A stretch of 64,000 nt of DNA from an uncultured Planctomycetales bacterium (lineage in GTDB: Bacteria; Omnitrophota; Gorgyraeia; Gygaellales; Profunditerraquicolaceae), in NCBI GenBank assembly GCA_964354795.1, contig CAYHBB010000037.1, positions 46,197 to 110,196 on the forward strand, given 5' to 3'. The notes below the pieces were generated by a model. It did not search any database. It was not told where the DNA came from and saw only the letters and a list, made by a program, of their open reading frames with translations. Below, in pieces: positions 38,323 through 38,379 of the stretch. The translations under genes were made by a program, and so were the position numbers. Numbering within the stretch: position 1 is the first letter of the stretch; every line of letters starts with the position of its first letter.

Positions 38323-38379
38323 TTTGACTCCTCCTTGTGCAGAAAGCACAACACCGGCCTTTCCTATAAGGCCGGGTGT
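38323..38379 (-). promoter_or_regulatory. Conserved structured 5' leader element (GC hairpin ACACCGGCC/GGCCGGGTGT + short hairpin GUGC-UUUCU-GCAC + SD), copy 1 upstream of gap
   Basis: Near-identical ~50-nt element also at 53640..53693, with a compensatory base-pair change in the short hairpin. Confidence 0.5.

Follow-up and report, generated by a model that had tools for sequence, protein, structure and literature searches.

A multi-copy module of two abutting hairpins, very probably a cis-acting RNA, precedes the ribosome-binding sites of unrelated genes in Omnitrophota

The 64-kb window (the whole stretch of DNA analysed here) carries two look-alike elements on its minus strand, one upstream of gap and one upstream of a gmhB-like gene. 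Pfam supports the identities given to the neighbouring genes in the first-pass annotation—GAPDH, a HAD phosphatase resembling gmhB, and a GT2 gene upstream of the latter—and both elements lie where that annotation had placed them. The features are listed below by window coordinates, with motifs written as RNA unless they stand for codons or Shine-Dalgarno sequences.

37270..38322, minus strand: gap, encoding a type I GAPDH of 350 aa (Pfam Gp_dh_N and Gp_dh_C), served by the gap copy
38330..38336, minus strand: gap Shine-Dalgarno, the full-consensus AAGGAGG, beginning at the 3' edge of hairpin 2
38336..38350, minus strand: gap copy, hairpin 2 (UGUGC, loop UUUCU, GCACA), abutting hairpin 1 with no linker
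38351..38379, minus strand: gap copy, hairpin 1 (ACACC, bulged C, GGCC, loop UUAUAGGAAA, GGCC, GGUGU)
38438..39433, minus strand: galT-like gene (Pfam) upstream of gap, with its stop 58 nt before the gap copy
53091..53639, minus strand: gmhB-like HAD phosphatase gene (Pfam Hydrolase_like and PNK3P), served by the gmhB copy
53644..53648, minus strand: gmhB Shine-Dalgarno AGGAG, one A after hairpin 2, with the start codon 4 nt on
53650..53664, minus strand: gmhB copy, hairpin 2 (UGCGC, loop UUUCU, GCGCA)
53665..53693, minus strand: gmhB copy, hairpin 1 (ACACC, bulged C, GGCC, loop UUAAUGGAAU, GGCC, GGUGU)
53680..53682, minus strand: TAA stop of the upstream GT2 gene (ORF 53680-54453), inside the hairpin-1 loop

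At gap, the start codon occupies 38322-38320, 7 nt after the Shine-Dalgarno, and the segment 38379-38320 (minus strand) reads ACACCCGGCC-UUAUAGGAAA-GGCCGGUGU-UGUGC-UUUCU-GCACA-AGGAGG-AGUCAAA-AUG, ending in the gap start; U38351 and A38335 could add a sixth pair to hairpin 2. The corresponding segment at gmhB (53693-53637, minus strand) reads ACACCCGGCC-UUAAUGGAAU-GGCCGGUGU-UGCGC-UUUCU-GCGCA-AAGGAG-AAAA-AUG, ending in the start of the gmhB-like gene. The motif as originally written has the right general plan but counts some bases twice; in corrected form the RNA runs ...GGCCGGUGU-UG-(UGC or CGC)-UUUCU-(GCA or GCG)-CAA-(A)GGAG(G). The interval from ribosome-binding site to start codon, written there as 'N', also needs amending, to 7 nt at gap and 4 nt at gmhB. 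A Shine-Dalgarno of the form AAGGAGG is rare in the window, occurring at only 3 of 53 genes, and the minus strand between the galT-like gene and the gap copy yielded no promoter-like site. The nearest homologues of the window GAPDH are all from Omnitrophota, and its 350-aa homologues bear the name Omnitrophota GAPDH.

The start codon of the gmhB-like gene was placed at 53639-53637, giving a protein of 182 aa that matches the gene call in a relative, L002; the longest ORF, which starts at 53675, was rejected as the gene. The overlap of the larger hairpin with the end of the GT2 gene was correctly noticed: the TAA (53682-53680) falls within the loop of hairpin 1, whose 5' arm encodes the final four residues of GT2, His-Thr-Arg-Pro, a layout also seen in L002.

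The two copies form a 45-nt minus-strand direct repeat (38335-38379 and 53649-53693) that is 89% identical, where the chance expectation is none, and each copy lies directly 5' of a ribosome-binding site. The sole matches in the window to ACACCCGGCC-N10-GGCCGGTGT are 38351-38379 and 53665-53693, and the sole matches to GGCCGGTGTTGYGCTTTCTGCRCAA are 38335-38359 and 53649-53673, all on the minus strand. Neither diagnostic pattern had a match in 100 dinucleotide shuffles, which rules out a chance origin of the repeat and agrees with the opinion first expressed on it. Five differences separate the copies, three of them at hairpin-1 loop positions and two in the short hairpin, and the latter two keep complementarity as had been pointed out, with U:A in the gap copy (T38348:A38338) and C:G in the gmhB copy (C53662:G53652). 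RNA folding, which had been proposed as a check, yields both hairpins; for the gap copy the predicted energy is about -23 kcal/mol (z = -3.6). Against two covariance models the gap copy scores 73.1 and 66.2 bits and the gmhB copy 66.7 and 54.4 bits. When the same models were run over the window with filters off, no further copies were found, the next best match (19230-19274, plus strand) scoring 16 bits.

Pattern scans and the two covariance models place these elements in a family of more than 150 copies, distributed over Omnitrophota contigs and three Planctomycetota-labelled contigs. A genome scan for hairpin 1 plus UUG only (ACACCCGGCC-N6-14-GGCCGGTGTTG) returned 25 loci, and the full two-hairpin plan is present in all 8 Omnitrophota loci and in 3 Planctomycetota-labelled loci; the matches in Actinomycetota and Proteobacteria are G+C-rich coding sequence and were rejected as units. 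A Shine-Dalgarno was not demanded by this pattern, yet it is present in 9 of the 11 units, and the genes that follow are groEL (with the unit in the groES-groEL spacer), a yajC-like gene, gmhB, unknown genes, and one tRNA. A metagenome scan in which the variable stems were left free (ACACCC-N16-24-GGTGTTG-N9-13-CAAGGAGG) returned at least 120 loci; among the matches listed, 116 are true units, comprising 104 distinct sequences. Every source-named protein from the metagenome-scan contigs is assigned to Omnitrophota. The strict pattern had no match in viral contigs, and carriage by phages is therefore unsupported.

In the family consensus, hairpin 1 (27-34 nt including the bulge) opens with ACACC and a bulged C, continues through 4-6 variable pairs to a YUAAnGGAAUU-type loop of about 11 nt with a conserved apex containing GG, and closes with GGUGU. 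Hairpin 2 follows with no linker as UUG-NNN-(NNGU or UUUCU)-NNN-CAA, and is succeeded by (A)AGGAGG and a start codon 4-9 nt on. The upper stem of hairpin 1 is rich in G+C and covaries freely, occurring as GGCC, GGCGC/GCGCC, CGCGC/GCGCG, GACGC/GCGUC, AACGC/GCGUU, GGCAC/GUGCC, AACUU/AAGUU, and other variants.

The family is apparently undescribed. Rfam 15 at gathering score had no match in the whole window, and around units in ten related loci it matched no unit, detecting only tRNAs and one c-di-GMP-I riboswitch; relaxed Rfam searches, of 38290-38440 with E up to 10 and of the L086 arrays with E up to 1, gave only sub-threshold unrelated families. Full-text literature searches returned no description of such an element. 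The kind is a familiar one—cis-acting leader structures and repeated intergenic palindromes—and a described family with all of these features was not found. The distinctive set comprises homology over about 50 nt, fusion to a Shine-Dalgarno, phylum-wide reuse before dozens of unrelated genes, conservation of foot, bulge and apex, and the existence of a three-way-junction variant.

The structure of the unit is under selection. In a MAFFT alignment of 11 units, 96.4% of pair cells are paired; stem 2 reaches 100% and contains three pairs that covary. A model-guided alignment, built from 122 hits of which 115 are distinct, has 99.1% of pair cells paired and 98.8% in the hairpin-2 helix, figures that are favoured by the structure-fitting of that alignment. 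Double changes are present there at 13 of 14 pairs (237 cells), a level equalled in 0 of 500 shuffles, and moving the partner by 1-3 columns lowers pairing to 25-58%. Alignment-free mutual information, calculated from 76 units of identical length, recovers the helix pairs of both hairpins and nothing else; no pseudoknot or tertiary covariation was seen beyond the helices in this analysis, the residual signal coming from one register-shifted loop variant. Neither mutual information nor folding contains an alternative pairing of the antiterminator or anti-Shine-Dalgarno kind, and the folds leave the Shine-Dalgarno outside both hairpins. The original suggestion of a functional structured RNA common to unrelated genes, for which further copies and covariation were to be sought, is thus strongly supported by the size of the family and by covariation in both helices.

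The orientation of the unit is locked to the downstream gene. Among the matches listed, 113 of 116 units have a start codon 4-9 nt after GGAGG, and 104 of the 122 model hits lead directly into a ribosome-binding site and a start codon that opens an ORF of 40 aa or more, with the Shine-Dalgarno 0-1 nt from the unit. A hairpin-1-only census, which required neither hairpin 2 nor a Shine-Dalgarno and covered 916 kb of Omnitrophota sequence enriched by selection, counted 157 copies; 127 of these have a ribosome-binding site, start and ORF within 50 nt, and the others are mostly upstream members of co-oriented tandem arrays. About 95% of the hairpin-1 copies point the same way as the gene or array that follows them, and 5 of 157 lie on the opposite strand. 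Approximately 40% of units begin no more than 20 nt after a co-directional upstream stop, a few overlap the stop as at gmhB, and about half are intercistronic. At L031, the unit abuts a tRNA-Leu gene and not an ORF.

Strong sigma-70-like promoters lie upstream of a number of units that are preceded by a longer spacer. TTGACA-17-TAAAAT (11 of 12 matches) is situated 19 nt upstream of the unit in L100 and TTGACA-16-TACACT 20 nt upstream in L148, and further promoters of this type were identified by eye in L050, L051, L053, L060, L104 and L144. They differ between loci and stand at variable distances, with -10 boxes 4-20 nt upstream in several loci, and the predicted transcripts begin with about 0-20 unpaired nt before hairpin 1. 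Because these promoters lie upstream, the unit would be part of the transcript and not itself a promoter, and it is most likely a transcribed leader or an intercistronic module.

The genes served are diverse. Among the matches listed, 74 non-redundant downstream proteins contain 92 Pfam families, and include DnaK (seven contigs), GroEL, GAPDH, PGK, PFK, class I aldolase, PstS-type binding proteins, bacterioferritin, ACP, IlvC, CysK, ribosomal proteins L21, L31 and L32, YebC, GreA, LemA, SPFH proteins, NiFe hydrogenase, and a pseudopilin. Judged by gene identity, many such products are among the most abundant proteins of bacteria generally. A riboswitch or other ligand-sensing leader was rejected on account of this functional mixture and because no structure switches the Shine-Dalgarno or a terminator.

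Orthologous dnaK, pstS, bacterioferritin, aldolase, groEL and gap genes retain the unit across lineages, with compensatory changes. Closer to the window, a variety of states are observed at gap. L002 (GCA_026387455.1), which is syntenic and has a GAPDH 96% identical, and L003 (97% identical) have a different galT-gap spacer without the element, and the same holds for L005 and L007 (both 90% identical). L124 (90% identical) has a window-like spacer with the element and the same loop UUAUAGGAAA, with a C:G pair where the window copy has U:A. From its retention in L124 and its absence from the other four we infer that the gap copy is of old standing and that some relatives have lost or replaced it, and the unit appears to be dispensable at gap, since close relatives express the gene without it. 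L002 keeps the gmhB copy, in which the short hairpin closes a 43-nt insertion of two more hairpins.

Copies that share a contig have an identity of 0.52 at variable columns, against 0.46 for copies from separate contigs, with the exception of L086, which has recent near-identical duplicates, and species-representative genomes have a single exact copy each of the window hairpin-1 sequence. Tandem arrays occur in L019, L041, L075, L086 and L088, and in L041, L074 and L086 whole units are nested between the two apex G's of another unit. The nested form is a three-way junction, the inner helix of which (UCCGCC/GGCGGA) recurs in many contigs. Rarely, hairpin 1 is inverted, its 3' arm then carrying a bulged G and its loop being the reverse complement; such copies were seen in the L002 gmhB leader and in L150. 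The 5' flank of units is often AAG or G, mirroring the CAA-G junction. There are about 14 independent copies beyond the pattern-selected ones in 652 kb of flanking sequence which, together with the two in the 64-kb window, suggests a copy number of tens per genome as a rough estimate.

We are confident that the unit is a functional cis-acting RNA, and it is probable that both window sites are copies of one multi-copy Omnitrophota module of this nature. Its action is likely to be at translation initiation or on mRNA stability, and we propose only tentatively that its net effect on expression is positive. The module would ride in the mRNA, either as 5' leader or between cistrons, and its rigid pair of abutting hairpins would act post-transcriptionally on the downstream cistron at the translation-initiation region. 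The stable hairpins may shield the downstream cistron from 5'-end-dependent decay and, after cleavage, may shield the upstream cistron from 3' exonucleases; a strong ribosome-binding site that is never sequestered would give efficient initiation on genes for abundant proteins. Two of the candidate mechanisms in the first-pass annotation, a regulator-binding leader and a processing or stability element, are still viable, while its third, an attenuator, fares poorly (see below).

A dedicated trans-acting partner is probable, because an invariant foot, bulge and apex would be useless in a plain stability hairpin; it could be either a protein or the 30S subunit. The tandem arrays, the nesting of units, and the differences in presence between relatives point to spread by rare duplication, after which selection would keep the copies. 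Partition-function folding gives a predicted Shine-Dalgarno accessibility of 0.55 for native units against 0.41 with shuffled hairpins (p = 1.5e-8), and 0.52 with the element deleted, a difference from the native value that is not significant. In these models the element avoids masking the Shine-Dalgarno, and exposes it no more than the A+T-rich native flank does. An insulator that presents the ribosome-binding site was rejected, there being no accessibility gain over deletion, and a simple ribosome-binding-site-presenting role is weakly supported by the folding.

The main rival, which we regard as improbable, casts the unit as an operator at which a global translational repressor would bind two sites, in the manner of CsrA/RsmA. 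A dimer would bridge the apex GGA and the Shine-Dalgarno GGA about 30 nt downstream and block the 30S subunit, and the units would mark a post-transcriptional regulon. Among the matches listed, the hairpin-1 apex is GGA in 73 of the 104 distinct units and can be drawn as a U-[CGGA]-A tetraloop like that of the RsmE/hcnA site, and in almost every unit the apex is followed about 30 nt later by the Shine-Dalgarno AAGGAGG, the metagenome pattern having required CAAGGAGG. Tandem and nested arrays would multiply the binding sites, and the wide gene set resembles a global regulon. Against this, the apex in the same 104 units is GGU in 19, UGA/AGA in 10 and another sequence in 2, and either a GGU or a UGA/AGA apex should abolish CsrA binding. 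The ACACC/GGUGU foot, the bulged C and the UUG/CAA foot are foreign to CsrA sites, and the conserved stems are left unexplained. Searches by tblastn with E. coli and B. subtilis CsrA queries gave 0 hits in about 1.1 Mb of fragments from more than 100 genomes, and Hfq gave no hits in the same fragments. Leaders regulated by CsrA/RsmA are known at glgC, hag and hcnA, and the units are like them in that most have an apex GGA and a Shine-Dalgarno GGA tens of nt apart, and in their broad, mixed targets. They are unlike them in that 30% of apices are without GGA and in their long conserved stems and bulge, which are not CsrA determinants; moreover, CsrA sites arise independently at each gene, whereas the units are clearly homologous copies.

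Spread of a selfish palindrome of the REP/MITE kind, copying at the DNA level, is a quite unlikely explanation of the family. Closeness to start codons would in that case be an insertion preference, for example for the G/GA of a Shine-Dalgarno or of the unit's own apex. Repeats of the REP/BIME, ERIC and Correia types can protect neighbouring cistrons, and hairpin 1 resembles a REP as a multi-copy, imperfect, G+C-rich palindrome of 20-40 nt. The tandem arrays, the units nested in apices, the near-identical duplicates of L086, the inverted hairpin-1 copies of the L002 gmhB leader and L150, the presence or absence of the gap copy between close relatives, and the 5' flanks that echo the CAA-G junction all fit such copying.

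REPs are found in both orientations, whereas the co-orientation described above is nearly complete. Copies within a contig are barely more alike than those of different contigs, there is one exact copy per species-representative genome, and orthologous genes keep the unit across lineages with compensatory changes, all of which argues against selfish spread. There is no GT[AG]G head, the 5' flank being AAG, NTG or GTT and the 3' flank UG, and the units are without terminal inverted repeats and without a clear target duplication. No RAYT, the transposase associated with REP/BIME, was seen by tblastn with an E. coli YafM query (0 hits in about 1.1 Mb, made up of fragments from over 100 genomes), and the recurring UCCGCC/GGCGGA inner helix looks like a conserved three-way-junction variant and not a random self-insertion. 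Palindromic repeats of the REP/BIME, ERIC and Correia types are co-transcribed and alter mRNA stability or translation (reviewed in PMC3184786). The unit shares with them its G+C-rich imperfect palindromes, multiple intergenic copies, tandem or nested clusters, and occasional gain or loss. It is set apart from REP/BIME by its one-way orientation, its fusion to a downstream Shine-Dalgarno, and copies that have diverged within a genome as far as between genomes.

That hairpin 1 is an intrinsic terminator or attenuator of the upstream gene, with the remainder a separate leader, is very improbable, and the terminator/antiterminator attenuator among the mechanisms first put forward is not supported. 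A simple scan lists 38375-38354 (minus strand) as terminator-like, with the tail TGTTGTGCTT, and many units begin just past a stop codon. In the 104 distinct units among the matches listed, the 3' flank is the conserved UG plus hairpin 2 and not a U-tract, and neither mutual information nor folding offers an antiterminator pairing. Hairpin 1 stands only about 20 nt from the ribosome-binding site, with no room for a promoter in between, so a terminated transcript would leave the downstream gene promoterless. The organism has canonical U-tract terminators unlike the unit, for example after gap (37250-37216), and such terminators lie upstream of the units in L031, L056 and L104.

A DNA-level signal (an alternative-sigma promoter or a transcription-factor operator) is the least probable reading: the units precede many probably highly expressed genes, TTGnnn-N-nnnCAA resembles an inverted-repeat operator, and in L031 and L056 a terminator close upstream leaves little space for another promoter, but the inner helix positions vary while staying complementary, as expected of RNA or single-strand pairing and not of protein-DNA contacts, and sigma-70-like promoters stand upstream at variable distance. 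Specific promoter readings of the unit were rejected, sigma-70 on a spacing misfit that would put the -10 box on the start codon, and sigma-54 on a spacing misfit and a GG-N10-GC that is not conserved.

The preferred reading, a post-transcriptional cis-acting module, has partial counterparts among known systems. Leaders that act as 5' stabilisers include the E. coli ompA 5' hairpin, those of B. subtilis ermC and aprE, and the B. thuringiensis cryIIIA STAB-SD. By analogy, the unit would share with these a stable hairpin near the 5' end of the message, a strong Shine-Dalgarno, genes for abundant proteins, and post-transcriptional action in cis. The stabilisers are single-gene leaders unrelated in sequence, whereas the unit is one conserved 45-50-nt module that recurs upstream of dozens of unrelated genes, keeps its foot, bulge and apex invariant, and often lies between cistrons; unlike the classic 5'-terminal stabiliser, hairpin 1 is not flush with the predicted 5' end. 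The put RNA of phage HK022 is a cis-acting two-hairpin antiterminator that is not known to be multi-copy or linked to a Shine-Dalgarno. The unit may be likened to it in its two adjacent hairpins, its conserved bulge and loop features, and presumed cis action on its own transcript, a likeness that would also suit the tRNA-adjacent unit; it differs in being multi-copy and Shine-Dalgarno-linked, and there is no sequence similarity. Finally, Nijveen, Matus-Garcia and van Passel (PMC3575422) described reused upstream regions as 'putative mobile promoters'. As with those, homologous upstream sequence is found before non-homologous genes, both within and between genomes; the reused part here is a transcribed leader plus ribosome-binding site, with promoters that are outside the unit and differ between loci.

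A bolder form of the proposal, which we think unlikely, is that the unit is a phylum-wide portable translation-initiation module in which an RNA dock is fused to a Shine-Dalgarno and which spreads by site-specific self-copying into G/GA sites. Its reader would be either a dedicated Omnitrophota factor or the 30S platform without an intermediary, and self-copying into such sites would yield tandem, nested (three-way-junction) and occasionally inverted copies. If this were true, bacteria would have in it a counterpart of the modular translation enhancer, and the very high biosynthetic activity that has been reported for the ultra-small Omnitrophota cells (PMC10066038) would be easier to explain.

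Omnitrophota are uncultured and their control of expression is nearly undocumented, and the unit would be a general post-transcriptional signal for the phylum, marking what we estimate to be tens of genes in each genome, many of which encode abundant proteins. It is compact and conserved, covaries very strongly, and may serve in the annotation of true start codons and operon junctions, and in a search for its partner by phylogenetic profiling. As a natural portable cassette of leader and ribosome-binding site it is a possible synthetic-biology part, and it would constitute a new family for RNA databases.

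Every real-looking gene ORF in the window (1-64000) lies on the minus strand, and the genes whose domains were checked, either here or in the syntenic close relative L002 (GCA_026387455.1), are of the polysaccharide and sugar-modification type, with a DegT aminotransferase and glycosyltransferases; radical-SAM and Wzy/Wzz genes are also found in L002. Directly upstream of gap are two tandem paralogous GalT/HIT-like genes of the DUF4921/DUF4931 type (38438-39433 and 39434-40462), and this pair is kept in the relatives L002, L003 and L005. The stretch from fmt to the galT-like genes is variable among close relatives.

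Contents of the variable fmt-galT stretch
Window 40601-48722: ORF6N gene and a 2213-aa protein (41545-48186) with ~160-nt internal repeats
L002 5689-7853: Fic/RhuM, ORF6N and ParE toxin
L003 53-7736: RHS/YD-repeat protein, BrnT and two ORF6N genes

A second repeated palindrome, GGGGACGGTTCT...AGAACCGTCCCC, is unrelated to the double-hairpin leader unit. Four matches occur in the window where 0.15 are expected, with copies flanking the ORF6N gene, and other Omnitrophota contigs have the palindrome too. It resembles a bidirectional terminator or a further family of repeats.

Copies of the second palindrome
Window: 40538-40585, 41191-41233 and 48795-48806
Other contigs: L002 5581; L003 4964 and 7748; L035 8937-8965; L059 2152-2195; L069

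The covariance model of the unit also gives a weak match in the window at 19230-19274 on the plus strand (16.4 bits, E about 0.02; ACAGCCGGCUCUAAUAGAUAAAGGCCGGUAU). This match falls within ORF 19070-20125, on the strand that carries none of the genes, and is a degenerate remnant or else due to chance. One Omnitrophota contig with units, L141, additionally carries a c-di-GMP-I riboswitch (2884-3012) that scores 42 bits, above the gathering score.

In L002 the gmhB unit's own short hairpin closes a 43-nt insertion. The inserted sequence contains the small hairpin GCGUCCU-AAAA-AGGACGC as well as hairpin 1 in inverted orientation, CACCCAGC-AUACCUAUUA-GCUGGGGUG, with a bulged G in the 3' arm. The same composite recurs in contig L150, ahead of an unrelated membrane-protein gene. 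In a separate, three-way-junction variant, a complete second two-hairpin unit lies between the two G's of one unit's apex; its inner second helix usually reads UCCGCC-YYGU-GGCGGA, and the variant often occurs in tandem repeats upstream of a terminal unit bearing the Shine-Dalgarno sequence.

Elaborated forms of the unit
L002 1136-1185: composite, gmhB leader
L150 about 1500-1545: composite, before the membrane-protein gene
L086 11030-11125 and 12490-12660: three-way junction
L041 1180-1300: three-way junction
L074 1-96: three-way junction
Upstream flanks of L052, L071, L081, L082 and L146: three-way junction

The 76 units of identical length show an association at unit columns 32 and 41 between the pair that opens the upper stem and the central pair of hairpin 2, each of them G-C or C-G: GGCGC occurs with UGU/ACA, and CGCGC with UCU/AGA. 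The unit thus comes in two major subtypes, which would be specific to clades or else co-read by a partner.

One unit lies within a tRNA cluster (L031 1545-2053), between tRNA-Lys and tRNA-Leu; it ends 2 nt upstream of the mature 5' end of tRNA-Leu and is preceded, ~35 nt upstream, by a canonical terminator. Since this context has no Shine-Dalgarno sequence, translation alone is insufficient to explain the unit found there.
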